From the IMG/VR virus record IMGVR_UViG_3300037117_000082, positions 1 to 64,000 of that record: a DNA stretch of 64,000 nt; one strand, written 5' to 3'. The DNA comes from a virus. Taxonomy: Duplodnaviria; Caudoviricetes. The position numbers and the translations under genes are program-made. Shown here in pieces: positions 6,337 to 64,000 of this stretch; the stretch's first letter is position 1, and every line of letters begins with the position of its first letter. The notes below the pieces were generated by a model. It saw only the letters and a program-made list of their open reading frames with translations, was not told the DNA's origin and did not search any database.

Positions 6337-6462
6337 GCACTCCTTAATGGGTGCTGGTAGTTGCGTTCTTGTTGTCTCCTATGGGGTCTGGCCCGTGCGC
6401 GCCGCGCTAGGGCAGTCGTTACCTCTCAGCACCGCTGAGGGGGACGTTTGAGGGTGTGCCGG

Positions 6463-6743
6463 TCAGGCCGCGCGGCCAGCGTTGCGCAGATCCCGCGCCA
6501 TCGCGCTCTTGCGGATCTGGCGGGCTAGCTGCTGGTCGGTGACTACGCTGCCGGCCACGTGGTAGGTGACGGTAACTCCCGGCATCGCTGGCGGCGTGAA
6601 AGTCGTGGCGCCGCCTGACGTGCCCGGGCCCGGCCAGATGGTCGTCGCGGGACCGAGCACGCCTGTGGTGCCGCCCGAGCACGGGCAGCAGTCAAGGTCA
6701 GGGGAGTTGATCCGCTGGCAGGCAGGGCAGCGCCATCCTTCAC
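6463..6743 (-). CDS. hypothetical Zn-ribbon protein
   Basis: GTG 6743 overlaps the upstream stop; GWRCPACQRINSP...CPC. Confidence 0.55.
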
Positions 6744-6976
6744 GCATCGCGGGACGCCGTTGCGGCAGCGCACTCGCGCTCAAAGCGGCGGGCACCGAGG
6801 AATGCGCGCAGCGGCGTCTTGTGGCCGCCTGCGCCCACCGGGCCGGCCGGGCCGTACTGGACGCCGCAGGACCATGAGCGCCGGGGAGCACCGGGAGGGT
6901 AGACCTCATGCTGGAAGGTGTAGCGGCCGATCTTCCACCCGCGCGGGGGCGACTCGGCGCCGTCGAGAATGGTCAT
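6740..6976 (-). CDS. hypothetical protein
   Basis: AGGGAG RBS, in operon orientation. Confidence 0.5.
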   Translation of the reverse strand: MTILDGAESPPRGWKIGRYTFQHEVYPPGAPRRSWSCGVQYGPAGPVGAGGHKTPLRAFLGARRFERECAAATASRDA

Positions 6977-7016
6977 CGCGCTTCCTCCCTTGGTGCGGTC
7001 AGCTCGCCCTGCCCGG

Positions 7017-7175
7017 TCACAGCCAGTGCCTCCGGCCGCCGACTGGATGGCCGGCGTGGCCGAGGACGAGCAGGATCAGGCCGGCGATCAGGACGACGGC
7101 GCCGGCCGTGACCAGCACGGCGAGCTTTGCCACGAGCAGCCCGATGACGAGCAGGATGATGCCGAGGGTGATCAT
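7017..7175 (-). CDS. small two-TM membrane protein (DUF6131-like)
   Basis: MITLGIILLVIG...GHPVGGRRHWL, AAGGAG RBS; the actinobacterial family ends GGRRHx(Y/W). Confidence 0.65.
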   Translation of the reverse strand: MITLGIILLVIGLLVAKLAVLVTAGAVVLIAGLILLVLGHAGHPVGGRRHWL

Positions 7176-7185
7176 TACGTCTCCT

Positions 7186-23535: not shown

Positions 23536-25170
23536 TCAGGCAGCGATTTCCCCGCAGTCCGGGCACTTGCCGAGCCGCGCCATGTACGCCTTGCCGCAGT
23601 CACACCGAGTTACCCCGTAAGCGTCCAGCCATGTCGTACCATCCGATACGAGGGCAAATACCACAGCGTCGCCGTCGTCGGTGGACCGGCCGATCCGCTT
23701 GCGGATCTCCTTCTTGGACTCGACCTTGATCCGCGCGCCGGACTCCACCTTGGACTTGGGGGCGCACAGGTCACCGATCAGGAGATCATCATCGGGCAGG
23801 CACAGGTCCGGGTCGTTACGGGGGTCAAGCGCCTCGCGCAGCTTCCACCAGGCATAACTCCGGAAATCCGAGAAACGGTACTCGCCCGAGACATCCCTGC
23901 GCTGGCCTGCGCTCTTGGCTGCGGTGAACGGCTCGGCTTTCGCTTTCTGCTCGCGGAGCCGGTCGTACACGCCCTTGCCGATGCCGTCCGAGTCCACCAC
24001 GGCGGTGCACTCCGGATCGGCATCGAGGATGCCCTTGATCCGCCCCGTCGTCTGCATGGTGTCCTGCTTGCCGAACTTCCGCAGTTCCGTGACCACGGGA
24101 CCCCTGCGGATCGCCAGCACCGTCATGTCCGATCCCTCGCCGGCGATGTCCGCGCCGAGGGAATGCGGGCCGGGCAGATCAGGCTTGCCGGCGTCCTCCC
24201 AGGCGTGCCAGCGCTGGACCGCTGCCTCAACCCACGCCAGCGGGATCACGGCATCGTCGTCGGCCGCGTGGAACTCGCCGAGGACGTGGCACTGGACGAA
24301 CTGGGATGTCAGGCCGTACTGCTTGATGCGCTGGTCAGCCCACTTGCGGCTGATCTGCCCTGCCGCTACCGCCTCGTCCAGGGTGACGTGGCGGGCGGTC
24401 CAGTCCTCCAGGCCCTCACGGCGGGAGTGGATGTCGTAGAACCGGCCCTGCGGGTCACCCGGCGTCGACAAAGCGAGCGCGAGGGCCTCGCCGCCGCCGG
24501 ACAGGGCGCCCTCGATCGCATCCCATGTCGTCGCCGGGATGAGCTTCGCCTCATCGAACATGATCAGGATCGCGCTCGCGTGCGCGCCCTCGATCTTCGC
24601 CGAGTCAGTCGGCGCGGCGGCCAGCGCGAGGCCGTGGGGCAGGCGGAGGGCCTGGCGCATCAGCTCATCGGATTTCGGCGGCCTGCCATCACGGACGATG
24701 TCCCAGCGGATCAGGCCGGCCCACTTGTGGACCTCGGGCCAGAAGTAGTTCTTCAGCTGCTGCCACGCCCCGGCGGTGGTGACGATCTTCCAGTCGATGC
24801 CGGCGGCCTCGCGGGTCAGGGCGAACCAGAGGACCGTTATGGACCCGATGCAGCTTTTGCCCAAGCCCCTCGGGCCCCGGACGGCAACGCGCTGCTTCTC
24901 GTCCAGCAGGGTCAGGATCTCGGCCTGGTAGTCCGCCAGGCCCTTGGCGCCTTCCCCGGCTCCCTCGTCCTTGGAGCGGGGAACGGCGCCCCAGTCGATG
25001 CAATTTTCCGCGAACCCCGCTGGATCATGGAGGTACTTGACAACCGACTCGCGGGAGGTTTCCTGACGCCGCGCCAGTGCCTTCGCGTTGAGGGCCAGGA
25101 GGCGGCGGATCTCCGCGTCGATGTCCAGGGGCTCGGGCGGCTCAGCCGGCCGGGTCCTCGCCATCGCCAT
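23536..25170 (-). CDS. terL: terminase large subunit
   Basis: Walker A GPRGLGKS, Walker B LIMFDE, coupling motif LSTP, nuclease GADIAGEGSD, STDDGDA. Confidence 0.92.
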   Translation of the reverse strand: MAMARTRPAEPPEPLDIDAEIRRLLALNAKALARRQETSRESVVKYLHDPAGFAENCIDWGAVPRSKDEGAGEGAKGLADYQAEILTLLDEKQRVAVRGPRGLGKSCIGSITVLWFALTREAAGIDWKIVTTAGAWQQLKNYFWPEVHKWAGLIRWDIVRDGRPPKSDELMRQALRLPHGLALAAAPTDSAKIEGAHASAILIMFDEAKLIPATTWDAIEGALSGGGEALALALSTPGDPQGRFYDIHSRREGLEDWTARHVTLDEAVAAGQISRKWADQRIKQYGLTSQFVQCHVLGEFHAADDDAVIPLAWVEAAVQRWHAWEDAGKPDLPGPHSLGADIAGEGSDMTVLAIRRGPVVTELRKFGKQDTMQTTGRIKGILDADPECTAVVDSDGIGKGVYDRLREQKAKAEPFTAAKSAGQRRDVSGEYRFSDFRSYAWWKLREALDPRNDPDLCLPDDDLLIGDLCAPKSKVESGARIKVESKKEIRKRIGRSTDDGDAVVFALVSDGTTWLDAYGVTRCDCGKAYMARLGKCPDCGEIAA

Positions 25171-32679: not shown

Positions 32680-32830
32680 TCAGGTAACCCGCGACAAGCT
32701 CGCGGCACTCAATCCCGGCATGGACGAGCGCGGGCTAGCGCGCCTTGCCGCGTTCGAGCAGCTCATCGCCGAGGATGACGAGGCCAGTGGCTACGAGGAC
32801 CCCGCGGACGAATGCGAGGGTGCACCGTGA
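32672..32830 (+). CDS. small acidic hypothetical protein
   Basis: MPDQVTRDKL...; stop overlaps the recombinase GTG. Confidence 0.5.
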   Translation: MPDQVTRDKLAALNPGMDERGLARLAAFEQLIAEDDEASGYEDPADECEGAP

Positions 32831-33753
32831 CCCGCGCGCTGCGTGCCGTCCCCAGCACCACGATGCCCCTGTGGGATGCCGTGGCCAGCTACCTGGCCAC
32901 CATGGACCACCCGGAGAGCGCCGGAACGCGGAAGCAGTACGGGTCGATCCTGAACCGCATGGCCAGGGGCATCGGCGAGGAAAGGGACGTGCAGGCCGTC
33001 ACCGCCGCCGACCTTACGGCGTGGATGAAGGCCACGTCCGGGGATCGCGCCCCCCGGACGTGGAACCTGGCGAGAGTATGCCTGCGCTCCGCATGGTCGT
33101 ACTGGGGGCAGGCAGGCTGGGCTGACCCGGAGGTTGCACGGGGCATCCCGCCGCGGAAGGTCGCGGAGGACCGTGACCGGGCAATACCGGGAGACGTGCT
33201 GGAGGCACTGCTGGCGGACCAGAAGATCCCGCTGCGGGAGCGCGTGCTCTGGCGGATGATGCTGGAGACCGCGGCGAGGGAGTCGGAGCTGCTGCGGCTT
33301 GACGTCGGCGACCTGGACCTGCCGCACCACCGTGCGCGGGTAACACGCAAGGGAGGCGACACAACCGGCCTGTGCTGGCAGTCGGGCACCGCATCGGCGC
33401 TTCCCCGGCTGCTGAAAGGGCGCAGGAGCGGCCCGCTGTTCGTCACGTCCCGGAAGGCGCCGGCGGGAACGCCGCGCGCCGACGTGGCACCTGACGGCCG
33501 GGGAAGGCTGTCAGCAAGGCAGGCGCAGGACACGTTCATGAAGGCAACCCGGGACTTCCCCGGAGGCCCCTGGACGCTGCACCAGATCCGCCACCGCGCA
33601 CTCACCGACGCGGCCGAGGCAGGCGCGTCGACCGCGATGATGATGGCGCTGAGCGGCCACAAGAACGTCAAGAGCCTGCTGATCTACGCCAGGGTAGGGA
33701 CGGACGCGCTGGCAGCCTGGCAGGCCGATCGTGACCCGAACCGGAGGCACTGA
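32827..33753 (+). CDS. tyrosine recombinase (Xer-like, no arm-binding domain)
   Basis: Catalytic set: ARESELL (R), RKGG (K), HQIRH, SGH, IYA (Y). Confidence 0.92.
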   Translation: MTRALRAVPSTTMPLWDAVASYLATMDHPESAGTRKQYGSILNRMARGIGEERDVQAVTAADLTAWMKATSGDRAPRTWNLARVCLRSAWSYWGQAGWADPEVARGIPPRKVAEDRDRAIPGDVLEALLADQKIPLRERVLWRMMLETAARESELLRLDVGDLDLPHHRARVTRKGGDTTGLCWQSGTASALPRLLKGRRSGPLFVTSRKAPAGTPRADVAPDGRGRLSARQAQDTFMKATRDFPGGPWTLHQIRHRALTDAAEAGASTAMMMALSGHKNVKSLLIYARVGTDALAAWQADRDPNRRH

Positions 33754-49991: not shown

Positions 49992-51307
49992 GTGAACTAC
50001 CAGGACGCCTGCGCAGCCGTTGCCCTCCCGTGGCGCACCGGACGGCACAACAGCCAGGTCGCCTACGCGCAGGCAGGGGAAACGGCCAGCGACGATGACG
50101 TGATGGTCGGCACGTTCATGGCCCCGGAACTGGCAGAGGATGCCGTGAGAGCTCACAACGCGGCAGTCGAGGCGCGGCAGATGAGTCCTGCTGCGCCCGC
50201 TGGTGACGCAATGTGGACGTGCCCTGACTGCAACGAGCCTGCGCCTCACAAGCGCGGAGAATGCCCGGTGTACTGATGGCCAGGATGCTAGGCCGGGAGC
50301 GGCGCGCTGGCTGCGGCAACTTCCGCTGCCGTCTCTGCGGTCCCGGTGATACGCGGTGGGCCAAGCGACGGGAAGCGCGGGAGGCCGAGCGCGAGATCGA
50401 GGCTGACTACGACCACGCCGCTCCGGTTGCCCTGGCGCTGAGGCCGTGGCGCATCCTGCGGGAGGACCAATGACCTACAGCGCACCGCTCCGTGACCGCA
50501 TAGCCGTCAGGATCTGCAACGCGGTCATGCGGGTACTGGCAACCGAGCACTACCGGAAGATGATCACCGGGGCGATACGGCTTGGACTCCAGACCGCAGC
50601 GGACGAGTCGCTGGCGCTGGTCACGATCTCGCCGGACGTGCCGCCCGTCGTGAGCTTCGATGAGCGCGACCTGGCCGTCATCGCCATGTACGACGAAGAC
50701 GAGGGCTGATGCCCGGCACCCGCTGGGATGCCCGTGCAGGCCGCATGATCCGGATCCCGGAGTCCTGCGATCACTGCGGGCGCAGGCTGGCCAGCGGGCA
50801 TGCAAGAGGCAGCAACGGGGAGAGGCTCTGTCACCCGGACAACCCGGGCCTGCCTGACTGCGCAAGGCGCGTGGCCGCTGGTGAGATACTCGGCGCGCTC
50901 AAGGGCATCGGGCAGCCGCCGCCGGGGGTCACGGGCATCACCGAGGAGGCCCGATCATGACCACGCCAGCCGCGCTCCGTGAGGACGCTGACCAGTTCAT
51001 CGAACTCGTCCGGCTGGACTGGGCGGTCACCAAGACCTGGAACCGGCTGCACGCCGTCAAACCGGAGACCTGGACCGATGAGCACCGGGACGACATGGAG
51101 TGCGAGTGGGCCGTCCTGGCGCCTGTGCGGCTTGCCTGCGGGCGCACCGCAGCGTACCTGTGCATCCCCGGGCTGTTCTCGCGGATGGGCGCTCAGCGCT
51201 GCACGGGCTGCTGCCGAGCTACCGGGATGCCGCAGGGGAAGGGATCGCCGAAGAACGACGACGCCTGCCGCGTGATCCTGGGACTGCCGACCGATCCCGA
51301 CCGCTAG
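49992..51307 (+). other. run of small hypothetical genes (49992-50276, 50276-50473, 50470-50709, 50709-50960, 50957-51307)
   Basis: Overlapping starts and stops; several Cys-rich. Confidence 0.55.
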
Positions 51308-51384
51308 GATTGCCTCTCCGCGTCCACGGAGACAGCCCGGCAGGGCATCTAGGTCCCGAACCTGCCGGGCTTTCCCGTTGCCAG

Positions 51385-52189
51385 TCACGTCTCCGGGCCG
51401 CAAGTAAGGCACACGTTCTGAGTCATGACGTGCTCGCCATCCGGCATGTCCAGGAAGCGCACCGCGTAGCCGTCATACGGCGTGAACGGAACCCCGCAGG
51501 CCGGGCACGGAAACTCCCCGCCCGCGTCGGCCGGTTCCTCGTAGTCGTCTGGGTGAAAGAGCCGGACGTGATCGAGCAGCCCGGTGGCAATGCCGAGATC
51601 GGCGTCAATATCCGAACCGCACCGCAGGCAGGCTGCGCTCATTCCGCCACCGTGCCTTCCCGCTCGGCAGGCAGCCGGCGCATCATCATCGGGTGGTCAC
51701 GGTCGCCGCTGGCCTTGAACTCAATCTTCACGCTGGTGACTGGACCTGGCGGGATGCACTCAGGGTCAACGGGGCCGAAGTTGCTGACCGTGAGCGGCGT
51801 GTCCACCCTGATGTCCAGGCCGTGGGGCTTGGCCGCCTCGAACTCGTAGCCGGTGCCGTCCGCGAACTCCACGCGGGTAAGGACGCGGGAGACCTGCGGG
51901 ACCGGATCGAAGGCAGTGCGCGCGGGCTCGGTCATGGTCGTGATCCCGCCGCGCCTTCCCGCCCGGCATCCGGCAGGTACTCGATCACGAATCCGCCGCC
52001 GTCCAGTGCCCGGATCCGGGCGCCCTTGCTGAGCCGTATGCCCGCGTCGCCGGCGTCACTGGTGACGGTGATGCTGCCGCCGGGGCCGAACTCCACGCCG
52101 AAGCCGGAGCCGTCCAGCCCGGCAACCTGGGTTGCGCTGTAGAGGCTGCACCCGACGATTTCGATGGGCGCCTCTGCTGTCTCGGTCAT
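51385..52189 (-). other. three small hypothetical genes (51932-52189, 51639-51935, 51385-51642)
   Basis: ATGA overlaps; GAGAGGA RBS before 52189. Confidence 0.55.
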
Positions 52190-52211
52190 GGTCTTGATCC
52201 TCTCAAATTGC

Positions 52212-52268
52212 AGTCTCATCATGAGACTTCTGCCTGTCTCATCAAGAGATTCAGTCTCATCATGAGCC
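52212..52268. repeat. three palindromic repeats GTCTCATCAWGAG
   Basis: 52213-27 (perfect GTCTCAT-C-ATGAGAC), 52236-50, 52254-68. Confidence 0.8.
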
Positions 52269-52333
52269 TGCCGGTTGCTGCGAAACGCCCGTCTGGCCTG
52301 CATGTACTTGACGTGATCTTCCTCCGGTCGGTA

Positions 52334-52822
52334 TCACTTAGTGGTCCGGGAAGTGACCGCGCGCCGCGATCTGAAAGCCTCCGCGCGGGACACATGGACC
52401 GCGCCGGCCAACTCGACCAGCGCAGCGCCCGGCGGCAACTCCCCTCCCGGCGAGTCAAGCAGGGCAAGCGCCCGCAGCCGCACGTCGGCATGGCCGAGGT
52501 CGGACGTGAGCATTTCCCGCAGGGTCTCCTCGAAGTCGCGTGACTCGGCGGCGGAACGCGGCAGGCACGACGGATGGATGCCCAGCCCAATGAGCTTGTG
52601 CCGGATCTTCCGCTCGCTGCACCCCGCGTGGCAGAACCAGACGAGCCGGTGCTTCCCCTCGCTGATCTTGAGCGAGCGCTTCGCGTCGTCGTGACCGGGG
52701 CAGTACGCCGTGAAGTACCAGCGGCCCGTGTCGGTGTCCATGCGCAGATCTGCGGGCGCTCCCGGCACCTTGGGGCGCACGTGCTGGTGGAGGCACTCCC
52801 TGGACGGCACATCGCATGCCAC
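52334..52822 (-). CDS. primase-type (CHC2-like) Zn-binding domain + C-terminal HTH
   Basis: CPGHDD..RSL.I......CHAGC; LVELAGAVHVSRAEAFR. Confidence 0.75.
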   Translation of the reverse strand: MACDVPSRECLHQHVRPKVPGAPADLRMDTDTGRWYFTAYCPGHDDAKRSLKISEGKHRLVWFCHAGCSERKIRHKLIGLGIHPSCLPRSAAESRDFEETLREMLTSDLGHADVRLRALALLDSPGGELPPGAALVELAGAVHVSRAEAFRSRRAVTSRTTK

Positions 52823-53107
52823 GGCGCGCTCAGACGGCGAGAGGGATTGCGGGGCGCGGCTGATCGGGGAGGCTGTCGCCAGTTATGCTCTGCATAGGCT
52901 GCACCGGGTTTCTTAGCCGAGACGGTGACGGCTTAGGCCCGGCGAGTGTTTCCGCACTCGTTCGGGCCGCCGTTTTTTGTTGTCCTCGAACAGTCTACCG
53001 GTTGTAAGCACCCCGACACGGTGTGTGCGTGCAGGTTTTCGACCCTCCGCCCGCTACCATCCACGCCGGGGGGCCGGGGAGACCCGATGGGGATCGGGTC
53101 TCCCGCC

Positions 53108-53151
53108 ACAGAAGCCCCGGCTGGCTCGGCTCAGCAGCCGGGGCTTTCTGT
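53108..53151. terminator. intrinsic terminator-like hairpin
   Basis: AGAAGCCCCGGCTG...CAGCCGGGGCTTTCT. Confidence 0.6.
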
Positions 53152-53347
53152 GTGCGCACATGAAAAAGCGCCGCCGCCAGTGCGGGGGGCGCTGGCGGCG
53201 GCGCGGGGCAGCCTCCGGGAGCGGGTGGGCTTGAGAGGCCGCACGGGGCAGCCAGCCGGACGGCTGCCGTTGCCGAGAGTAGCGCTCCCCTTACCGCTCA
53301 CGGTGTTGCCGCAGGACAGGGCGCGTGTCGGGCGGTACGGTGCTGGC

Positions 53348-53680
53348 ATGAGCCTCACGGAGCACGCCAGGCGCGAACTAGAGCTATGCGGCCAGTACGC
53401 CGAGGATCCCGCCTACTCGGAGTCCATCATCAAGGCCGTCGAGGCGTTCGCGTCCTACGGCCACTCGGGCGGTTCGGCCATGTGCGCCCGCGAGCAGCTT
53501 CATGCCCTGCTTGCCTTCCAGGCGCTGTCTCCGCTGACCGACGATCCTGCCGAGTGGGTAGATCAGTCCGAGGTCAGCGGAAGCCCGATGTGGCAGAACA
53601 AGCGTGACCCGGCCGTGTTCAGCACGGACGGCGACAAGACGTGGTACTCGCTGGATGACAGGCAGCCCGAGTCGGCCTAG
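53348..53680 (+). CDS. conserved phage hypothetical protein
   Basis: L.EHA.REL...F...GHSGGSA...L....LSPLT...EW...WQN.R...FS. Confidence 0.7.
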   Translation: MSLTEHARRELELCGQYAEDPAYSESIIKAVEAFASYGHSGGSAMCAREQLHALLAFQALSPLTDDPAEWVDQSEVSGSPMWQNKRDPAVFSTDGDKTWYSLDDRQPESA

Positions 53681-53860
53681 CCGCTTCCATGCCCCGCGTG
53701 TCCGCTACCGCCAGTTGCCGCGTGAACGCAGACCGCTAGAAATTTAATTAGCCCGGCTGTACGGTGCTAAGTGACGCTAATCACTGAACCACCAGTACGC
53801 CGGGCTTGGTCACTAATCGTAGCCCCGCCCGCGTGCTCACGGCAAGCGGGAGGGGCAGTC

Positions 53861-54588
53861 ATGAACGTAGATCGGCCGCGCTTACGGGATGACATCGACG
53901 GGGACGTGCGGGCGCTGGACGACCTGTCTTACCACTGGGGGCCGTTCTGGTCCTTCTCCGTCAGGTACGGCCGCGAGGGCCCCGTCTGGAAAGCCACCCC
54001 CGCAGACGACAGCACGCCCATGACGGCAGTCAGCGCGGAACTCCTGCGGTCCATGCTGAGAGGGTCCGCGGAAAGGAACAGGGCGCCCCGTCATGGCTGA
54101 GTGGCTGATGGACCGCCTAGCCGCGCTGTATGGCGCCGAGTACGACCTGATCGCCACCGCTGCCGGGCTCGCCGCGGTACCTCACGAGACGGGCCGGGAG
54201 ACGCTGAGAGCGCATTCCCCTCTGGTGCTGGCCGTGCTGCTCGGGCAGGCCGCAGCCGGGAAGGCGCACGGCGAGCCCGCGCTGGAGCGCTGCCACCGGG
54301 CGCACGGGCGCGTACAGGGCGCGCATGCGGCGAGAGAGGCGCGCCGTGGCTGAGCGGCTCGAATCCACGAGCGACACCTGCGACCGGCTCGGCGGGGCTC
54401 ACGATCACTGGAGTTTCTGGTTCGCCGGCGAGTTCTACGCTGCACGGACTGGCGACCTGACGCCAGGCGAGCACCGGCACGGGGTGATGGCCCCGCTGTC
54501 GGCCGCGGACCCGGACGAGCTGTCCGCGATGGTCACGGCGCAGGACGAGCCTGCCGCGGATGCCGAGCAGTTCGCCTGGGAAACCTAG
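53861..54588 (+). other. three tandem small related proteins (53861-54100, 54093-54353, 54346-54588)
   Basis: Overlapping ORFs sharing an aromatic strand...A...L.A.S..(E/L)L...L pattern. Confidence 0.55.
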
Positions 54589-55026
54589 AGACCGGCTGCG
54601 GCGGCCGGGTTCCCCCCGTACCCGGCTGCCGCAGTCTCTAAGTGATCACGGCGGGCGCGCAAGGCATCGGCCAACTTCGACCCCCGAAGAAACCGGCCAG
54701 CTTATTAAGGGTTGCGTGGCCCGCCGTGATCTCCCCTCCTGCTTGTCACACCGGGAGCGTAGCGTTGTTCCTGTGGCTCTTGCATGTTTGCTCTCCGTAG
54801 CAGGGCCGTTACGGTAAGTTAGGTTCCCTGTCAAGGAGACACGCGGGGGAAGGGTACGGAAGATGCGCTTGCGGCCACGGGGGAAGATGGCATTGATCGC
54901 CGCACTGTCGGCCGATCTGGCGGCGAGCCGTGAGCGCGAGGGCAAACTCACCGAGAGGCTTGCGTGGTACCGCGTGGCAGTCGAGGGCGGCACGACGCCA
55001 CTGCGGCTGCTGGAAGGCGGGGCGGT

Positions 55027-55380
55027 TCAGGCGCCCCTGCGCTCCCCGTTACGGGTGGCGCGCATCCCCTGAATGACGGCGATCACGACCCGGCGTTCCT
55101 CGTCGTCTAGCTCGGGCAACTCGGTCGCGACCTCGCGTGGCTCCCGGATCACGGGCTCGGCGCCGGCCAGGACGCGCCGCGCCGAGTCAGGTTCCCAGCC
55201 GAGCGCGAGTTCGACATCCGCGAGCGTGACCGCGCCGACAGGGCGACCGGTCTCCAGCTTGCCGAGCGTCCGCGCCGTCACCCCTGACACGGCGGCCAGG
55301 GCCTTGCGGTCCCGGTAGCCGAGCTTCACCCTGCGCGCTATCACGTAGCTGGCAAGGCGTCCCCAGTCCTCAAGAGGCAT
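55027..55380 (-). CDS. XRE-family immunity repressor (CI-like)
   Basis: W.RL...RR..LGY...LA..SGV...TL..LE.G...E.ALGW..S; divergent from the Cro-like gene. Confidence 0.82.
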   Translation of the reverse strand: MPLEDWGRLASYVIARRVKLGYRDRKALAAVSGVTARTLGKLETGRPVGAVTLADVELALGWEPDSARRVLAGAEPVIREPREVATELPELDDEERRVVIAVIQGMRATRNGERRGA

Positions 55381-55487
55381 GACGCCACTATGCCGGAAGG
55401 GTTCGGAAGAATCCAGCGTGTCCGCATAACTTACGCCCGCATCCGGTCACGCCACGGTCACCAAAGAGGAAACGGTGCGCGTTTAGT

Positions 55488-55516
55488 TTGACTTTGCTTC
55501 CACTTCGCTGCATCCT
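55488..55516 (+). promoter_or_regulatory. leaderless early promoter
   Basis: TTGACT-17 nt-CATCCT, 6 nt before the ATG at 55523. Confidence 0.6.
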
Positions 55517-55522
55517 GATGAC

Positions 55523-55780
55523 ATGGCAAACGGACGACCGCGCGGACCAGCAATCAAGGGCTCCGGCCTCCGCGAGCGCCGCGTTCAGCTCGGGCTCAGG
55601 AAGACCGAGCTGGCGGCGCGCTGCGGGGTCTCGGCCCGTTACATCGCGGACCTGGAAAAGGAGCGCTACTCCCCGAGTATCGAGGCACTGCACCGGCTCG
55701 CCGGCGTGCTTGAGATGCCCGTGACGAGCCTCATGCGTGACCCGGAAAGCGATCCGATCACGGCCGGGAACGCCGCGTGA
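55523..55780 (+). CDS. Cro-like XRE regulator
   Basis: LRERR..LGL...ELA..CGVS..YI..LE.....PS...L..LA..L. Confidence 0.88.
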   Translation: MANGRPRGPAIKGSGLRERRVQLGLRKTELAARCGVSARYIADLEKERYSPSIEALHRLAGVLEMPVTSLMRDPESDPITAGNAA

Positions 55781-55877
55781 CCAAGGAGAGCAACCGAGCC
55801 TGAGACGTGAACGGGGCGCCAGTGCTAGCTGACGCCCCGGAAAGAACCGCAGGACCACGATACATGAAGGGACCGCA

Positions 55878-56192
55878 ATGCGTACCAAAACCACCCTTGC
55901 CGCCGATGGGCGCGAGGCGAGCATCCTCAGCCCGAAGGCCGTACTGGGCCCGATCGTGCGCCTCTCCAAGCACCGCGCGTCCAAGCCGGGGCACCACCAC
56001 ATGGAGCGGTCGCAGCGGTCCGTCAGCGGCAACACGGCGCGGGCGCTCACCAGCGTGCGGCGTAGCACCGGCAAGAAGCGCGCAGGCCAGCGCGGGGCGC
56101 TCGGCGCGGTCCCGCAGCACAAGCGGCCGGCCGTCTACAAGACCGACGCCCGGCGCGCCCGTGAGGCAGCAGCAGACCGGCAGGCGTCATGA
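55878..56192 (+). CDS. highly basic hypothetical protein
   Basis: AAGGGA RBS; Arg/Lys-rich. Confidence 0.55.
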   Translation: MRTKTTLAADGREASILSPKAVLGPIVRLSKHRASKPGHHHMERSQRSVSGNTARALTSVRRSTGKKRAGQRGALGAVPQHKRPAVYKTDARRAREAAADRQAS

Positions 56193-56425
56193 CCTCCCTT
56201 ACCGGGAGCGGCACCGTCACCCTGGCCATGCCCCAGCCGGTAGCGATCGGGTTCTACTGCCCGGCCTGTGGTGCCTGCGGATCGAGTGAGACCCACCGCG
56301 TCGACTGCCCGCGCCGCCCGCGCGGCTACTGCGGCTGCTGGCAGGTCACCGGCAGGCAGCCTGCTAACGGGGTCCACTGCTACATCTGCGACCGGCCTGC
56401 TGATCCTGCGCAGGTAGCGGCGTGA
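56189..56425 (+). CDS. Cys-rich hypothetical protein
   Basis: Several CxxC; overlaps neighbours. Confidence 0.55.
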   Translation: MTSLTGSGTVTLAMPQPVAIGFYCPACGACGSSETHRVDCPRRPRGYCGCWQVTGRQPANGVHCYICDRPADPAQVAA

Positions 56426-56706
56426 GCGCCGCAGCGATGGAGGCCGAGGCTGGCCGCCGGGTGGATGACCTGATCGCCTTCGAGGCTGACTACCGCTCCC
56501 GGATGCGCGCCTACCTGCAAGGACTGCTGCGCGACCTGGACAGGCGCGGCGAGTTGGCAGGCGATAAATGCGCCGATCCGGTCACGGTCAGCCGCGATGA
56601 CTTGCGTACGTTCTTCACGGCTCTGGGCGGTAGCCAGTTCCTGCGCCTCGGCTGTGCGGCCGGGCAGGCAGAGCAGCGGTTGCGGGCCGCTGGCGGTGCG
56701 TCATGA
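56422..56706 (+). CDS. protein with DivIVA/Wag31 C-terminal-like segment
   Basis: RVDDLIAFEADYRSRMRAYLQGLLRDL resembles the actinobacterial DivIVA motif L..FEREYR.RL..YL..QL..L. Confidence 0.7.
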   Translation: MSAAAMEAEAGRRVDDLIAFEADYRSRMRAYLQGLLRDLDRRGELAGDKCADPVTVSRDDLRTFFTALGGSQFLRLGCAAGQAEQRLRAAGGAS

Positions 56707-56899
56707 CCGCCGCAGGGATGGCCGGCACTCTCGCCGCTATCGCGGAGCGGGACCTCATCACCGGGGACCAGGCAGCCCGCAACCGCATCGCCGATGGATA
56801 CGAGCGGCTCGCGGCGGCCATCCGGCACAGGGCAGACGTCGAGGACCGCATACGCGCCCGGCTGCTGCCGCAACTGACTTTCACCAACAGGGGGACGAC

Positions 56900-57613
56900 A
56901 TGACCACGCCTACCAAGACCCGCAGGAAGCCCGCATCCAAGGCCACCGCAGCCGGCGCCGAGGCAGACACCATGCACGCAGAGGCGATGGCGGCACCACT
57001 GGGCCTGCCGCTGAGCCCGGACGCCCTGGCCGCGCTCGAGCGGGAATCACCCGGCGGCCCCATGACCATCATCGCCGCCGTCAGGGAGTCCTACGACGCC
57101 TGCAAGACCGTCACCAAAGGCGACTGCGAGGCCCTGCTCGAGCAGTGGCACGGGGAAGCACGGGAAGCCGTCTACGGGCCGCTGGCCGCATGGCTGGGAG
57201 CCGGGAAGCCCGATCACGTCCCGGCGCCGGCTGCCGGGATTGAGCGTGACGAGCCGCCGGCCCCGGAGGAATCGCAGCCTCGCCCGTACGCTCACCTGCC
57301 CCCCGATCCCTTCGATGCGTCTTTCGGCCCCCGCCGCGACGACGCGGTGCAGGCAGACGCCCTGGCATCCCTGGACCGCTGGTCTAAGGGCGGCACGAGC
57401 CAGTTCCCCGCCATCACGGACGAGCCCGCAGGAGAGCCGGAAGCCGCTGAGCCGGCCCTGTCCCCTCCCGCAGCGCCACCTGCTGCCGTAGATGCCGCAG
57501 AGGACTGGGACGCGCTCAAGGCACTCGGCGACGCGATCCCTGACGATGACGCTCCGCACACGGAAACGATGACCGTGATCATCGACCGCGCGGACGGGGA
57601 TGAGGCGGCATGA
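56900..57613 (+). CDS. hypothetical Pro/Ala/acidic protein
   Basis: ATG 56900 with AGGGGA; preceded by small ORF 56703-56903. Confidence 0.55.
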   Translation: MTTPTKTRRKPASKATAAGAEADTMHAEAMAAPLGLPLSPDALAALERESPGGPMTIIAAVRESYDACKTVTKGDCEALLEQWHGEAREAVYGPLAAWLGAGKPDHVPAPAAGIERDEPPAPEESQPRPYAHLPPDPFDASFGPRRDDAVQADALASLDRWSKGGTSQFPAITDEPAGEPEAAEPALSPPAAPPAAVDAAEDWDALKALGDAIPDDDAPHTETMTVIIDRADGDEAA

Positions 57614-57945
57614 CTCTCGCAACCATCACGCCGCTGCCCGTCGCAGAGCAGACGACCGCGGATCTGCTGGACGACGCTGCAGGGCGCCTGGCGCCCCTGT
57701 TCGAGATCGCAAGGTATGCCTGCCCGGCACTCACCGAGGACGAGCTGGCGCTGGCCTGGGAAGACCTGTGCGAAGCCGTGCGGGTCCGGGACGGGCTGGC
57801 CAGCGGCTACATCACCTGGGCTGAAGTTCAGCCCGACCTGACCTGCTCCGGCAGGCAAGAGGAAGCACTCCAGATGGCGTGCGCCGAGGCCGACGAGGCC
57901 CGCGACCGCCTCCAGCACGGCTACATCCGGGGGGATGCACGATGA
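57610..57945 (+). CDS. hypothetical protein
   Basis: ATGA overlaps. Confidence 0.55.
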   Translation: MTLATITPLPVAEQTTADLLDDAAGRLAPLFEIARYACPALTEDELALAWEDLCEAVRVRDGLASGYITWAEVQPDLTCSGRQEEALQMACAEADEARDRLQHGYIRGDAR

Positions 57946-58931
57946 CCGAGACGACTATCACCGAGGCAACGCCGGCCGACTACGACCCGCCGACGCCGAA
58001 GCTGAACGCGGCACTGGCGAAGGTGCAGGCCGAGATGCCGTCCGTGGCCAAGGACAACCTGGCCAGCATTCCCGGCAAGGACGGGAAGACCGGCTACAAG
58101 TACGGCTACGCGGACCTGGCCGACTGCAGCAAGGCGATCCTGCCGCTGCTGGGCAGGCACGGGCTGTCGTTCCGCGCCAAGCCGACGCTGCGCCCGGACG
58201 GCAAGTTCGTCCTGGCCTACGCGCTCAAGCACGAGTCCGGGGAGCAGGACTGCGGGGAGTACCCGCTGCACCTGAACTCGACCCCGCAGGCACTCGGCGG
58301 GGAGATCACCTACGCCCGCCGGTACAGCCTGTGCGCCATCACGGGGCTGGCGCCCGGCGGCGATGACGACGACGCGGCATCGGCTCAGGTGGAGGCGCAG
58401 CACCGCGGCTCCGGGTACGGCCGGGCCGACGACTCGTGGCGTGACCAGCCGCCGGTAAACCGCGCGCAGCCGCCAGCGAACGGTAATGGCCACGCGCCGG
58501 CTCATGCACCCGCGCAGGAGGCTCAGCCCGAGGCGCCCGACGCGGCCACGATCGCCGAGTGGGGCGCGCTGATCGACACCATCACCTGCCAGGAGGACGC
58601 GGACAAGGCTGACGCGGAGCTGAAGGAGATCTTCAAGCAGGACAAGATCACCTCCGCGACCGCCAACGCGATCCGCATGGCCATCCGGGCAAAGACAGCC
58701 TCCCTCGGCAGCCGTGAGGCAGTCCGCCAGCCAGATGAGCAGGTGCTCGCCCTGGCCGCGCGGATCGAGGAAGCGCCGGACATCGCCACCCTGCGGTCCA
58801 TCAGCGACGCGGCGAAGGTGACCCGCAAGGCGAGTGCCTCCTACATGCGCGAGGGGAAGCCGGTCACGATCAGCCAGCGCATCGGCGCGCGGCGGGCCGA
58901 GCTTGAGGCCGCGATGGCCGGTGCGTCGTGA
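57942..58931 (+). CDS. ERF-family single-strand annealing protein
   Basis: ALAKVQ.E...V.KD...Y.YADL...PLL..HGL...PQ.LG..ITYARRYSL....G...DDDA. Confidence 0.92.
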   Translation: MTETTITEATPADYDPPTPKLNAALAKVQAEMPSVAKDNLASIPGKDGKTGYKYGYADLADCSKAILPLLGRHGLSFRAKPTLRPDGKFVLAYALKHESGEQDCGEYPLHLNSTPQALGGEITYARRYSLCAITGLAPGGDDDDAASAQVEAQHRGSGYGRADDSWRDQPPVNRAQPPANGNGHAPAHAPAQEAQPEAPDAATIAEWGALIDTITCQEDADKADAELKEIFKQDKITSATANAIRMAIRAKTASLGSREAVRQPDEQVLALAARIEEAPDIATLRSISDAAKVTRKASASYMREGKPVTISQRIGARRAELEAAMAGAS

Positions 58932-59232
58932 CCGTGGCAACCTTCCGGTCAGCGTGGACCGACCCGGAGTTCGTGCGGCTGGCGTCCTACCGCTCATGGT
59001 GGGACGCCGGGACGTCAACTCGCGGGCCGCTGGCTGACGGGGAGAACCCGTGGCTGACGGACGAGCACCCGGAAGTCACGACCGTGAACGCGGCACCGGT
59101 GCCCCGGCCAAGGCTGGCGCGGGCCGATGAGTACGCGAGCCAGCGGTGCAGCTGTACGCATATTGCTTACGCCGATGAGTACGACGGCGGCTTCTGCCGG
59201 TTCTGCAAGTGCTCGGAGCACGGGGCGGCGTC

Positions 59233-59481
59233 ATGAGCCTCTACTCAGTGCGCCCGTGCAGCACGAGGACCGACCCGGCACCGGGCGTGCAGCTGATGCG
59301 CCAGGGGCAGAACCTGAACCGGCTGAGTCCCGCCGAGGCGCGCGAGCTAGGCGCCGAACTGATCCTCGCCGCCGGCGCGAGCGAGGCACAGTGGCCCGCA
59401 TCCGAAGCCGAAGCCGAGGAAGACGAGGACACGGCCATGCTCGGCGCGGGCTGGTCCGACATGTACGGGTCACCGGGATGA
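59233..59481 (+). CDS. hypothetical protein, paralogue of 48255..48458
   Basis: Shared VRPC...DP.PGV.L...NRLSP.EARELGAE.ILAAGASE.QW. Confidence 0.7.
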   Translation: MSLYSVRPCSTRTDPAPGVQLMRQGQNLNRLSPAEARELGAELILAAGASEAQWPASEAEAEEDEDTAMLGAGWSDMYGSPG

Positions 59482-59837
59482 CCGCCGGCAGCGACGTCCT
59501 GAACCCGGTGGACGTGGAGAACCACATCCAGTCCTGCTCCAACCGGATCGCCGAGGGCGTTCGCGTGGTCACGCAGGCCGAGCGCGAGGCCAGGGCAAAG
59601 CGCCGCGCGTTCGACCTGGCCTTCGCTCACGCCTACAAGCGCGCGGAAGGCCCGGCGCACGAGCGGAAGTACAGCGCCGAGATCGAGGCCATGCCGCACC
59701 GTGAGGCAGCCGACATCGCGGAGATCGCGTTCAGGCACGCGGAGCGGACGGCCAAGGCGCTGGAGAAGGAACTGTTCGCCTGGCAGAGCATTAATTCCAA
59801 TATCAGGGCCATGTACGGCGCGGCGGGTGTCCGGTGA
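59478..59837 (+). CDS. conserved actinophage helical protein
   Basis: LNPVDVE..I...SNRIA.GV...QS....IR..Y; ATGA overlap. Confidence 0.7.
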   Translation: MTAGSDVLNPVDVENHIQSCSNRIAEGVRVVTQAEREARAKRRAFDLAFAHAYKRAEGPAHERKYSAEIEAMPHREAADIAEIAFRHAERTAKALEKELFAWQSINSNIRAMYGAAGVR

Positions 59838-60322
59838 ACCGCGGCGGACCCCTGCGCGCATGCGGACGCCGCTGGCCAGCCGAGGAAGCCGCCCGCCACT
59901 CCAAGCGGGGACTCACCGAGGGTGCCGTTGTCATCCCCTGCTCTACGGGATGCGGGGGCTTTCACGTAGGGGTGCCGAAGGTAAAAGCGGCACCAGCGAG
60001 AAAGGCCGTGCGCAAGCCGCTGGAAACCCGGACACGGCTGCGGCCACGCAGCGCCAAGACGGCAGCCCGCTACGTGACGCGCCGCCAGATCGTCGCCGAG
60101 ATGTTCGCTGAGCCGTCCATCTGCGAAGTGCCGTGGTGCACAGACATTGCCACCGACCCGCATGAGCCGCTGACCCGTGCGCGAGGCGGCGACATCCTCA
60201 ACCGCGACGGCATCCGCAAGGTTTGCAACCCGCACAACGTGATGTTCAGCGCGGATGAGCAGCTGTGGATGTACGAGCTTGGCTTCTTGATCCACTCATG
60301 GGCCCGGGGCGGTGCAGCATGA
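59834..60322 (+). CDS. HNH-like nuclease
   Basis: CEVPWC...ATDPHEPLTRARGG...VCNPHN. Confidence 0.7.
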   Translation: MNRGGPLRACGRRWPAEEAARHSKRGLTEGAVVIPCSTGCGGFHVGVPKVKAAPARKAVRKPLETRTRLRPRSAKTAARYVTRRQIVAEMFAEPSICEVPWCTDIATDPHEPLTRARGGDILNRDGIRKVCNPHNVMFSADEQLWMYELGFLIHSWARGGAA

Positions 60323-61140
60323 CTGAGTGCTCGGTAGATGGCTGCACGAAATCCGCTCGGAGCAGCAAAACCGCTTACTGCGAAATGCATTATTACCGGC
60401 TTCGGAGAACCGGCACTCTCGAAATTATTACTAAGCCTCAGCGCCCGCCTGGCACTTGCACAGTTGACGGCTGCACCAAGCCTCGGTGCAGCCTCGGCTA
60501 CTGCCAGATGCATTACTCGCGGATGCGCAGGAACGGATCGGTGGAGCAGACAAGGCCGTGGAGTCCGACGACCGGCCAGTGCCCGGTTGAAGGATGCGAG
60601 AAACCGCAGAACTACAACGGCATGTGCAAACTGCATGCATCCAGAGTCGCCCGGCACGGTGATCCGTTCGCGTACACGTCGCACAGGGAGCGCAACTTGG
60701 CACGCGGTGAGGCGAACCCGAACTGGACTGGCAGCAATGCCACGTATTCCGCTATCCATCAGCGGCTACCCCGCGTAAAGGGTCGCGCAGCAGATCATCC
60801 GTGCGCAGAGTGCGGCGGGAATGCGAAGCAGTGGTCATACGATCACGCCGACCCGGACGAGCGCACATCAGAGTTCGGTCCCTACTCCACCGATCTTGAC
60901 CGCTACATTCCGCGCTGCGTCCCCTGTCACAAGACGCTTGACCTAGAGGTCAACCCGCCGAAGCGCTCGCCGGTTGATCTTGATGAGGTACGGCGCTTGC
61001 ACGCCGCCGGCGTCCGGGTGGCTGCCATGGCACGCCAGCTCGGCGTCGGCCGGGAGCGAGTCAACTACGCACTGACCGAGCTTGGGCTACCCCGGTTCGG
61101 TCCCGGCAGCCCTGGCAAGAATCTGGCGGTGTCCGCATGA
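60319..61140 (+). CDS. HNH-type endonuclease with three CxVxGC...CxxH Zn repeats
   Basis: Repeats CSVDGC/CTVDGC/CPVEGC; CAECG...WSYDH...YIPRCVPCH; C-terminal HTH; lower GC. Confidence 0.8.
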   Translation: MTECSVDGCTKSARSSKTAYCEMHYYRLRRTGTLEIITKPQRPPGTCTVDGCTKPRCSLGYCQMHYSRMRRNGSVEQTRPWSPTTGQCPVEGCEKPQNYNGMCKLHASRVARHGDPFAYTSHRERNLARGEANPNWTGSNATYSAIHQRLPRVKGRAADHPCAECGGNAKQWSYDHADPDERTSEFGPYSTDLDRYIPRCVPCHKTLDLEVNPPKRSPVDLDEVRRLHAAGVRVAAMARQLGVGRERVNYALTELGLPRFGPGSPGKNLAVSA

Positions 61141-62096
61141 TCCACGCCGGCGGCACCTTCATCGCCATCCTCACCGTAGCCGTCGCCTTCTGGGTGGTCC
61201 CGTACGGCTGGCGGGCCATCGAGTACCTGACCCGCCGCACCCCGTCCCGGTTCCTGGCCCCGGACGACGAGATGGCGCTGCGGATAGCACTGTCACGGCA
61301 CCCGGCAGGGCAGGGAATGGACGCACGGGACGCGGCGTGGTGGGCCGAGCTGGATGCGCTGGCAGCCTGGGCGGACTGGGACCGGCTGACGGCCGATAGC
61401 GCCGATGAGGACCCCCCGTGACACCCCGCGAGCGAGCACTGATCTGGTCAGCCCGGAGGCGGCTCCTGAGCACCCGGCGCATGCCCACGAAGGCCGGGGC
61501 GCTCGTGCAGGTAGAACTCGCGGCCGGGGAACTCACGAAGGCGCTGAGCCTCGCGGGACCGGCCAAGAAAGACATCACCGACAAGGAAAGGGGGCAGGCG
61601 TGAATACCGGAATGGTCATAGGCGTTTCCCTGTTCGCCGTCATCTGCATAGTGGTCGTGGTCGCAATGGCGCTTGGCTACAAGATTACCAACACATTCAC
61701 CATTGCGAAGCAATACCCGCCGAAAGACAGGGCTGCGGCTAAGGCGGAAGTCACGGGCATTGCGGACAGGCGATCGGCTGGCGCGGCATGAACGCCAATG
61801 TTGCCCCGCTAGTCGCCGCAGGAGTGGCCCTCATCGAGGCCAAGCGCCCCGGTGCGGTAGCCCTGCTAGACCCGGCCGTCCTGCGCGTGGATTCCTCCTG
61901 CGACTGCCCGCTAGGCCAGACCTGGGGCAGCTACGTGAAGGGAAAGAAGGCGCTGCGCCTGGACGAGACGGGAGCGCTCCAGCACGGGTTCACGTGGCCG
62001 GCGAGCGGCTACGCGGCTACCCGGTCGTGCGACTTCATCGAGGGCCTGAATGCGGAATGGCGGCGCGTTATCGCGGCTAGGAGGGCAGTCCTGTGA
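61137..62096 (+). other. four small genes (61137-61421, 61418-61603, 61600-61791 membrane, 61788-62096)
   Basis: Chained 4-nt overlaps. Confidence 0.6.
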
Positions 62097-62227
62097 ATGA
62101 GGAAAGATGCGACCTCCTGTGCGCTGAATGCCCTAAGTGTGACTGCGTATGCGAGGACCGCTGCGACGTCGATTGCCATCAGATAACGGCTGGCAACAGG
62201 GCAGCGAGAGGCGAGGGTGCAGCGTAG

Positions 62228-63154
62228 ATGGCTGACAAGACTGGCATTTCCTGGACGGATGCCACATGGAACCCGACGACCGGCTGCGACCGCGTTTCAC
62301 CGGGCTGCGATAACTGCTATGCGATGACGCTGGCGAAGCGGCTAAAGGGCATGGGATCGGCGAAGTACCAGACTGATGGCCACCCGTTTACCAGCGGTCC
62401 CGGATTCGGCGTGGCGGTCCACCCTGACGCACTTGACCAGCCGCTCCGCTGGAAACGGCCACGGCGCATCTTCGTCAACAGCATGTCGGACCTGTTCCAC
62501 AAGGACATTCCCGAGGGCTTCATTGCCCGCGTGTTCGCGGTCATGGCCGGGGCGCCGCAGCACACATTCCAGGTGCTCACCAAGCGCCACGGGCGCATGC
62601 GGTCGCTTGTGGGCAGCGGCCAGTTCCGCGACGCCGTGGCCGATGCCCTGGCGCCGCTGATCACGGACGGCATACCGGGCTTCCGCTCAGTCCCGCCGTG
62701 GCCGCTGCCGAATGTCTGGCTGGGCGTAAGCGCTGAGGATCAGCACTGGGCAGACATCCGCATACCAGCGCTCAACCGGACGCCGGCTGCCGTGCGGTTC
62801 GTCTCAGCCGAGCCGCTGCTAGGGCCGATCAAACTGCACCGGGGACACGGGCACTGCCCGGTCCATGACTTCCCCGGCGGCTTCTGTTCCAGCCCGTGCG
62901 GCGATCTGATCCTGCCTGACTGGCTGATCATTGGCGGCGAGTCCGGACCCGGCGCCCGGCCTATGCAAATCGACTGGGCGCGCGATCTGGTGAGGCAGTC
63001 CCGCGCGGCGGGAATCGCGCCGTTCGTCAAGCAGCTCGGCGCGGTGACGGGCATTCCCCTTGGTGCCGGTTCTCACGGCGCCGACTGGGACGCATGGCCT
63101 GCCGACTTGCGCGTCCGCGAGTTCCCTGCTGCCGCGCAACTGGCCGCGTCATGA
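62228..63154 (+). CDS. phage Gp37/Gp68 (DUF5131) protein
   Basis: I.WTDATWNPTTGC.RVSPGCDNCYA...IFVNSMSDLFH...LTKR...S.EPLLG...GGESGPGARP. Confidence 0.93.
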   Translation: MADKTGISWTDATWNPTTGCDRVSPGCDNCYAMTLAKRLKGMGSAKYQTDGHPFTSGPGFGVAVHPDALDQPLRWKRPRRIFVNSMSDLFHKDIPEGFIARVFAVMAGAPQHTFQVLTKRHGRMRSLVGSGQFRDAVADALAPLITDGIPGFRSVPPWPLPNVWLGVSAEDQHWADIRIPALNRTPAAVRFVSAEPLLGPIKLHRGHGHCPVHDFPGGFCSSPCGDLILPDWLIIGGESGPGARPMQIDWARDLVRQSRAAGIAPFVKQLGAVTGIPLGAGSHGADWDAWPADLRVREFPAAAQLAAS

Positions 63155-63362
63155 CCGCCACAGACCACCGCCGCATAGCCACCCAGGCCGTGAGCCTCCT
63201 GCTGACCATCGGCTGCTACGGGCTGGACCGCAGCAAGCAGCGGGAGTTGTGGCAGCGCGCCCTTGACCTTGACCGGCATCTGCACCCGGGCTTCCCACCC
63301 ACCACCGTCTGGACGGCCGGGGAAGGCGACATAGACCCGCCGCGACGAGAGCAGGCGACCGC

Positions 63363-63854
63363 ATGACGCGCGGCGCGATTGCCGGCAGCGAGCCGGGTTT
63401 CTTCGCCATCGGCATCTACCACCCGAAGGCTGAGGTCAATGTCGGCTCCCTCTGGCGATCCGCCACCCTGTACGGCGCGGCGTTCGTGTTCACGGTCGGC
63501 CGCCGTTACGAGCCGCAGTGCAGCGATACCCCGGTCACGCCGAAGCGCATTCCGTACTTCGCGTTCGATGGCATGGATGACCTGACCGGCAACCTGCCGT
63601 GGTCGTGCCCGCTGATAGCCGTCGAGATGACCCCGTTCTCGCAGCCGCTGTACCAGTTCAGGCACCCGGAGCGCGCCGCCTATCTCCTTGGCGCCGAGGA
63701 TCACGGGCTGCCGCGATCGATCAGTGACCGCTGCCACGACCAGGTAGTGATCGAGGGGCCCGTAGCGGAGTCGATGAATGTCGCCTGCGCCGGCTCCGTG
63801 CTGCTGCATGACCGCTACGTGAAAGCCGATCTGAAGGCGGCGAGGCCGTCATGA
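63363..63854 (+). CDS. SpoU/TrmH-family (SPOUT) RNA methyltransferase
   Basis: NVGSLWRSA, LLGAEDHGL, SMNVACAGSVLLHD motifs. Confidence 0.88.
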   Translation: MTRGAIAGSEPGFFAIGIYHPKAEVNVGSLWRSATLYGAAFVFTVGRRYEPQCSDTPVTPKRIPYFAFDGMDDLTGNLPWSCPLIAVEMTPFSQPLYQFRHPERAAYLLGAEDHGLPRSISDRCHDQVVIEGPVAESMNVACAGSVLLHDRYVKADLKAARPS

Positions 63855-64000
63855 CCACCTCCCCTATCACTCCCGTACCTGCGGTGGAAGGGAAGTCCGC
63901 CGTAGGTACGGGTTCCACCCCGCGCTCGTGGACGCTGGAGTTGCCCGCGGGCATGCGCCTGCTGTCCCTCAACGGCCGGTACCACTGGGCCGAGAAGGGC
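63851..64000 (+). CDS. probable RusA-like resolvase, truncated by window edge
   Basis: WTLELP...LSLNGR.HW N-terminal pattern. Confidence 0.5.
   Translation, partial: MTTSPITPVPAVEGKSAVGTGSTPRSWTLELPAGMRLLSLNGRYHWAEKG

Follow-up and report, generated by a model that had tools for sequence, protein, structure and literature searches.

The stretch of viral DNA analysed here (the window, the opening 64 kb of an IMG/VR virus record of 115,040 bp) comes from a tailed phage of a peat-soil actinomycete, and carries in its early region a gene for a 94-residue protein that appears to be a phage-borne chimera. The first 40 residues of this protein are traced to the 3' portion of divIVA from a host, and the 54 residues that follow form an orphan part. 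The preferred reading, held tentatively and at a probability of about 0.45 from sequence comparison, is that the copied end of the second coiled coil (CC2) of DivIVA pairs with the host protein and caps, or otherwise disturbs, its assembly. Polar growth in Actinomycetota is organised by DivIVA, an essential protein whose gene cannot be removed from walled cells, which makes it difficult to study. Phage proteins that target it are already known, and the new element here would be one built from a piece of its own target. If this reading is correct, a minimal, phage-evolved DivIVA fragment would reveal the residues that carry the DivIVA–DivIVA contacts, the fragment could be used as an inducible tool with which to turn tip growth off, and a second, mechanistically different phage route to DivIVA, carrying a piece of the target itself, would stand beside that of the mycobacteriophage protein Fruitloop gp52. 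A full-text literature search found no paper describing a phage-borne DivIVA fragment, though one may still exist.

The target gene (Table 1) is a real gene, as indicated by its GC at codon positions 1, 2 and 3 (0.74/0.54/0.80, with the peak of the frame plot on its third positions), by three homologues, and by 4-nt overlaps with both neighbours, in which its GTG start overlaps the stop of the upstream ORF and its own stop overlaps the ATG of the downstream ORF. Use of this GTG is further supported by the N-terminal “MSA” common to the window protein and two of its homologues, P0002 and P0003. The closest homologue (P0001) is 99% identical, and an additional entry (P0159) is the exact window form, beginning at Met6. 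P0002 (92 residues, on 55 contigs) and P0003 (136 residues, on 3 contigs) are each 69% identical to the window protein. All members of this family (the window protein, P0001/P0159, the P0002 cluster and P0003) consist of the CC2-end motif followed by the orphan part, and an alignment of four family rows (A1) has 50 invariant positions, distributed across both halves. The three diverged forms are 67–71% identical to one another, with intact ORFs. The family is rare, amounting to four clusters among 5.8 billion sequences; tblastn against 50,697 GenBank phage records gave 0 matches for the window protein and one weak match for P0003, while IMG/VR scans with alignment A1 and with P0003 found no relatives, the phage's own record perhaps being excluded from them. 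A scan of JGI metagenomes returned 80 loci, every one of which matched via the DivIVA-like part alone. One candidate for a larger fusion was a 354-residue protein (P0004), encoded on a contig of 2,275 nt; its permease N-terminus leads into a P0002-like end, and it was read as a chimera or a gene-call read-through, and set aside.

Table 1. Positions of the features discussed, numbered from the first letter of the window
Feature	Position	Strand	Evidence or remark
Portal fusion	13774-18414	-	Profile matches
Large terminase	23536-25170	-	
Tyrosine integrase	32812-33753	+	PHROG 1, E 1.6e-34
Divergent repressor-like HTH gene	55027-55380	-	PHROG 6288, E 4.8e-13; PHROG 37057 “transcriptional regulator”, E 2.3e-5; weak Pfam HTH_3
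Cro-like HTH gene, head of the rightward operon	55523-55780	+	Pfam HTH_3, E 1.5e-12; PHROG transcriptional regulators
Cys-rich 78-residue ORF upstream of the target	56189-56425	+	Overlaps the target via GTGA; frame plot agrees
Target, 94-residue accessory early gene	56422-56706	+	GTG start; stop included
Segment probably derived from the DivIVA CC2 end, EAGRRVDDLIAFEADYRSRMRAYLQGLLRDLD	56446-56541 (residues 9-40)	+	NF050102, reverse search, consensus
Family-specific orphan C-terminal half, PVTVSRDDL..FF.ALGG..F.R..C.AG.AE.RLRAAGG	56542-56703 (residues 41-94)	+	Invariant positions in 4/4 family rows
Downstream 66-residue ORF	56703-56903	+	Overlaps the target via ATGA; no Pfam family above cut-off
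ERF-family single-strand annealing protein, same gene chain, downstream of the target	57879-58931	+	Pfam ERF, E 5.1e-17; PHROG 155, E 1.3e-25

The motif found at the end of the DivIVA CC2, ..RRVDDLRAFEREYR.RLKAYLEGQLRDLE.., is present in the window protein, where the peptide RVDDLIAFEADYRSRMRAYLQGLLRDL occupies residues 13–39 (nt 56458-56538 on the + strand). Residues 12–45 align with positions 218–251 of the 256 in the NCBIfam profile NF050102, “DivIVA-like cell division protein Wag31” (E 1.1e-6, 28.7 bits), which is the sole NCBIfam family listed for the protein at E <= 10. The same profile matches P0002 (E 1.3e-7) and, over 85 residues, P0003 (residues 3–87, profile 165–249, E 4.2e-21). In the reverse direction, a full-length DivIVA encoded in a dcw cluster (L001) was used as the query against the entire phage (115,040 bases) and gave a single match, at 56437-56562 (E 4.1e-10). 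A preliminary description of this DNA had noted a likeness to the C-terminal coiled-coil motif of DivIVA/Wag31, and had named a similarity search against DivIVA as a check on it; the match is significant in both directions, and the likeness, as judged from these comparisons, exceeds chance. The 28.7 bits lie below the curated cut-off of NF050102 (260), a strict value given that Streptosporangiales-type DivIVAs themselves score 156–177 bits.

Over a 32-residue core, the window protein equals the consensus of 160 DivIVA loci, a biased sample picked by similarity, at 22 positions, P0002 at 23 and P0003 at 25, and the same numbers (22, 23 and 25) are kept of the 30 core columns whose conservation in those loci reaches 90% or more. 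As read off from blastp, the core of the window protein is 76% identical to host DivIVA sequence. Four columns with conservation of 90% or more in DivIVA are altered in the window protein between R12 and L39 (R to I at 18, R to A at 22, E to D at 23 and K to R at 29), and the changes common to all three family forms relative to the DivIVA consensus are K to R and the final E to D. In a monomer model of the window protein (mean pLDDT 71.7), residues 3–45 form a helix with a pLDDT of about 82–90.

Residues 9–40 of the window protein are homologous to the CC2 end of DivIVA/Wag31 (NF050102; PF05103), and the remainder of the host protein is missing. Searches of Pfam and PHROGs gave no match for the window protein, nor did PF05103 (the Pfam DivIVA N-terminal domain) or TIGR03544, both of which do match the host-type DivIVAs of three genome loci (L001, L006 and L069). 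PF05103 also found nothing in the whole 115-kb phage, which confirms the absence of the N-terminal membrane-binding domain, as had been remarked at the outset. The intercoil region is likewise absent, and in the short forms, which are two of the three diverged forms of the family, CC2 is gone save for its end. The window protein is not a member of the DivIVA family, because the defining N-terminal domain is absent; unlike DivIVA/Wag31, it is phage-encoded without this lipid-binding domain, adds an unrelated, conserved C-terminal half, and is specified outside the dcw cluster, from a phage early operon as opposed to a position after sepF and yggT. Searching the PDB by sequence gave no match below E 0.44 for P0003, and only N-terminal-domain entries and ATP synthase b for the L001 DivIVA, so that no solved structure was found for the copied region by these searches.

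The long form of the family, P0003, has been the most informative as to origin. It contains 79 CC2 residues that are 84% identical to the L001 DivIVA, which is of the Streptosporangiales type and whose gene lies in a canonical dcw cluster (FtsZ, a YlmE-like PLP protein, SepF, YggT and DivIVA); at a second locus (L069) the dcw context was verified in part. With P0003 as the query, an exhaustive HMMER search retrieved 867 proteins at E <= 0.001. For most of the 150 matches listed out of these 867, the best stretch lies within about residues 2–100 of P0003, and the sole listed entry matched mainly via the C-terminal part, besides P0003 itself, is P0001. The 33 matches inspected comprise DivIVA proteins and fragments of them, together with proteins that carry CC2 with a different end or one that seems mis-called. 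In a scan of one genome per species, 332 pattern matches out of 462 were confirmed, of which the 80 best were retained. The titles of these best 80 of 332 name Streptosporangiaceae in 27 cases, Trebonia in three, and Streptosporangiales, Nocardiopsaceae and Actinocorallia in one each, the families named presumably all belonging to the Streptosporangiales; a further 46 give only uncultured Actinomycetes or Actinomycetota, and one is a Gemmatimonadota bin.

A quick maximum-likelihood tree was built from 40 rows, comprising 35 distinct CC2 segments from the 80 genome loci, four Streptomyces-type rows and P0003, with metagenome loci and duplicate segments left out. The Streptosporangiales-type clade (SH-aLRT 99) contains P0003, which groups there with six DivIVA rows that share “EGLLRD” (SH-aLRT 93, below the starred level), on an end branch of 0.26 versus at most 0.036 in those six rows. 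The 84% identity of P0003, together with its nesting within a DivIVA clade, argues for capture of a host gene fragment as opposed to convergent mimicry, and the DivIVA-like stretch points to homology by way of a captured piece of host divIVA. The wording of the preliminary description, in which the protein was “mimicking” DivIVA, is therefore right as to the likeness, but mere mimicry gives way to capture. The simplest history would be that a phage lineage acquired the 3' portion of divIVA from a host just once, that evolution was faster afterwards, and that the short forms lost all but the last 32 residues of CC2, the direction presumably running from long form to short. Some uncultured Actinomycetes genomes (L006, at 4311-5165, and L013) contain a second DivIVA type, with FERDYR, ...KGQLRDLD and a short tail; that of L006 sits behind a GlmU-like gene and not in a dcw cluster, and this second type may be a paralogue.

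The window has a G+C content of 68.6%. The record has direct terminal repeats, and with these and a tyrosine integrase the 115-kb phage is probably temperate despite its size. Its portal gene encodes a 1,546-residue fusion of a portal (PHROG 2662, E 6.6e-55), a minor-head/head-morphogenesis part and an RNA-ligase-like part (PHROG 14859, E 1.4e-9). Megablast of positions 50000-64000 against known phages gave only four short matches, each covering about 1% of the query at about 80% identity; the sole DNA likeness of this region to known phages lies within a gene for a DUF5131 protein (62228-63154, +; E 8.1e-84), and extends at about 80% identity over about 146 bases, to gp68 of Che9c and to two Microcystis phages. 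The stretch is found in peat and permafrost metagenome runs, including two runs, from studies not flagged as its possible source, that contain 0.76 and 0.54 of its words, and this habitat fits the proposed origin of the fragment. Just to the left of the immunity region is a gene (52946-53680, +) whose 244-residue product matches Pfam PF25185 Tad3 (Type I Thoeris inhibitor) at residues 135–239 (E 4.3e-32), and which is likely an anti-defence gene.

With the cro-like gene counted as the first, the target ORF is the fourth of a rightward chain in which the majority of gene junctions between 55878 and 59236 on the + strand are 4-nt ATGA/GTGA overlaps. It lies in the operon between the cro-like HTH gene and the ERF recombinase, the usual early region, and its earlier designation as an early gene holds good, as a label of position only. 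No RNA is listed among the sequencing runs that contain the stretch, and no expression data were found; a promoter and terminator scan over 54500-59500 gave 0 sites, with a consensus that may not suit actinomycetes. The ORF immediately upstream of the target has Cys pairs (YCPAC..C.., C..C and C..C) that give it a zinc-ribbon look, and Pfam and PHROG searches gave no match for it.

Comparison of the target region with contigs from four other runs, of peat and permafrost samples, indicated that the gene is accessory and variably present among related phages. Contigs of one run (X4) are identical to the window at 56203-56487 and 56490-56665. In another (X5), a contig equals 56045-56406 and then continues with 92 letters unlike the window, while contigs of X4 and X6 enter from unlike sequence and join the window at 56702. 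The break points at 56406 and 56702 lie at the two borders of the gene, as expected of a mosaic cassette. The X5 bins at 56440-56567 have no cover and no contig bridges them, and gene loss there is not implied. Variable presence, with loose ends at both borders, and the rarity of the family could together suggest that the gene is a decaying, functionless remnant of an accidentally captured host fragment. This is very improbable, as intact ORFs persist in the three diverged forms, the invariant positions span both halves, the GC at codon positions is coding-like, and the gene is fitted to both neighbours by 4-nt overlaps.

The 54-residue orphan half is conserved across the family to the same degree as the motif, and protein homologue searches detected no relatives of residues 41–94 outside the window family. 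A blastp alignment to DivIVA runs on into the tail (42% over 91 columns), and descent from a diverged DivIVA tail was considered and rejected: in Smith-Waterman comparisons of the tails only, against 137 distinct DivIVA tails, the scores were not above those of shuffles, the observed maximum being reached by 35 of 200 shuffles for the window protein, 151 of 200 for P0002 and 90 of 200 for P0003. Derivation from another frame of divIVA, or from a paralogue in the window, was rejected likewise, as tblastn against the divIVA loci and the window gave a best value of only E 0.08. In the monomer model this half has two short, low-confidence helices (residues 58–70 and 79–90). A Foldseek search of the PDB with the window protein model produced no match at E <= 0.001, and the ESM Atlas returned sub-threshold rows only.

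A conserved C-terminal half implies a second activity, and the helix might accordingly serve as a polar address, binding DivIVA without inhibiting it and bringing the orphan part, or a partner of that part, to the hyphal tip or pole. Such a role would draw on the same homology evidence as capping, and Fruitloop gp52 is itself reported to be polar (PMC7474061). It is nevertheless unlikely, since the C-terminal half is without a function or fold assignment, and none of the neighbouring genes, by Pfam and PHROGs, indicates a polar process.

The preferred reading, capping of host DivIVA, attaches to what has been kept and what has been lost. Retention of the CC2 end, with the lipid-binding N-terminal domain and the rest of CC2 absent, makes pairing with the matching CC2 end of host DivIVA the most likely activity. 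The phage protein would thereby occupy a dimer–dimer contact, with neither onward linking nor membrane binding, and so act as a cap; with DivIVA dimers capped in this way, the polar scaffold behind hyphal tip growth would be weakened or remodelled in a dominant-negative manner. The phage might profit from a halt in tip growth, or from keeping other phages out, as the unrelated Fruitloop gp52 does. In Kitasatospora, deletion of CC2 abolishes DivIVA function, the C-terminal motif, with antiparallel dimer–dimer contacts, is assigned to DivIVA self-association in AF3 models, and the CC2 of B. subtilis is no substitute for an actinobacterial CC2, as stated in PMC12585849; a tetramer model of B. subtilis DivIVA is summarised in bioRxiv 10.1101/394452. 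PMC12585849 also describes a minimised DivIVA whose last 26 residues can be exchanged for those of B. subtilis with function kept, so that sequence variation is accepted in a part of this region that may overlap the copied motif. Retention of the DivIVA core columns by the family, and of the terminal end in the short forms, was counted in favour of capping as selective retention. Counting against it, along with this tolerance of change and the L163 protein described below, the copied segment is only about 32 residues long and coiled-coil ends can serve any oligomer, the four changed core positions could reflect drift from compatibility with DivIVA, and the orphan half is as conserved as the motif, which capping leaves unexplained. 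Prediction of a complex of two copies of L001 DivIVA residues 105–225 with two copies of the window protein gave, in a run without controls, scores of 0.11 and 0.09 (mark 0.32), which weigh on neither side of the question of binding.

The main alternative to capping is one in which the helix is a portable oligomerisation module that drives only self-dimerisation or self-tetramerisation, and the orphan half has a function unrelated to DivIVA, such as phage or host regulation. Scanned with a CC2 alignment, IMG/VR gave 10 pattern matches, one of which was confirmed as a relative; it lies on a contig of 25,033 bases (L163). This protein (5158-6300, +) has an XRE-type HTH_3 domain at residues 162–218 (E 4.6e-5) and a CC2-like end at residues 316–353 (NF050102 profile 208–245, E 1.5e-5), is 40% identical to the L001 CC2 over 82 residues, and is encoded directly upstream of a tyrosine integrase (6297-7733). 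Like the window protein, it belongs to a mobile element and contains a DivIVA CC2-like stretch; it differs in that the stretch is C-terminal and fused to an HTH protein, in the divergence of the second half of the motif, and in lacking the orphan domain of the window family. It is common for repressors to depend on a C-terminal helix for oligomerisation, which was counted in favour of such a module; self-oligomerisation is the simplest reading of the L163 protein, where the CC2-like stretch may simply oligomerise a repressor, and the equal conservation of the C-terminal half in the window family would suit the same idea. As an account of the window protein it is rated somewhat below capping, as a generic coiled coil could drift, yet the family keeps 22–25 of the 30 conserved DivIVA core columns; the short forms retain exactly the terminal motif and not a longer, dimer-forming coil; and a helix whose core is 76% identical to the abundant host DivIVA could scarcely be prevented from pairing with it.

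The closest functional precedent for capping is Fruitloop gp52, which binds Wag31 and excludes another phage (Ko and Hatfull 2018, as cited in PMC7474061), and which shows that phages gain from attacking DivIVA. The two proteins are similar in size (gp52 has 93 residues according to its GenBank CDS, against 94) and would share a target in host DivIVA/Wag31. Both genes lie outside the structural region and to the right of the integrase, in actinophages that are temperate (probably so in the case of the window). The parallel drawn with gp52 in the preliminary description survives as a functional analogy but not as a sequence similarity, BLASTP having given no alignment between the two at E <= 100. 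Moreover, gp52 matches 0 NCBIfam families at E <= 10 and contains no DivIVA-like motif; in contrast to the window protein, it is not host-derived as far as sequence tests show, and its binding of Wag31 is experimental where that of the window protein is only proposed.

The DivIVA end may be a module reused by mobile elements. In its broadest form, this would have phages of mycelial actinomycetes repeatedly capturing the self-association end of DivIVA as a portable plug into the host polarisome, with the window family acting as a cap or poison of polar growth, and the L163 protein coupling the lysis–lysogeny switch to the state of the growth scaffold; so general a scheme is a long shot. Three short metagenomic proteins (P0037, P0025 and P0137) also begin with DivIVA CC2 (NF050102 E 1.8e-19, 1.7e-21 and 1.5e-8, respectively), lack the N-terminal domain and have unrelated C-termini, although some are perhaps gene-call fragments. 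One of them, P0137, has the sequence “GLLRDLDESD” in common with P0003.
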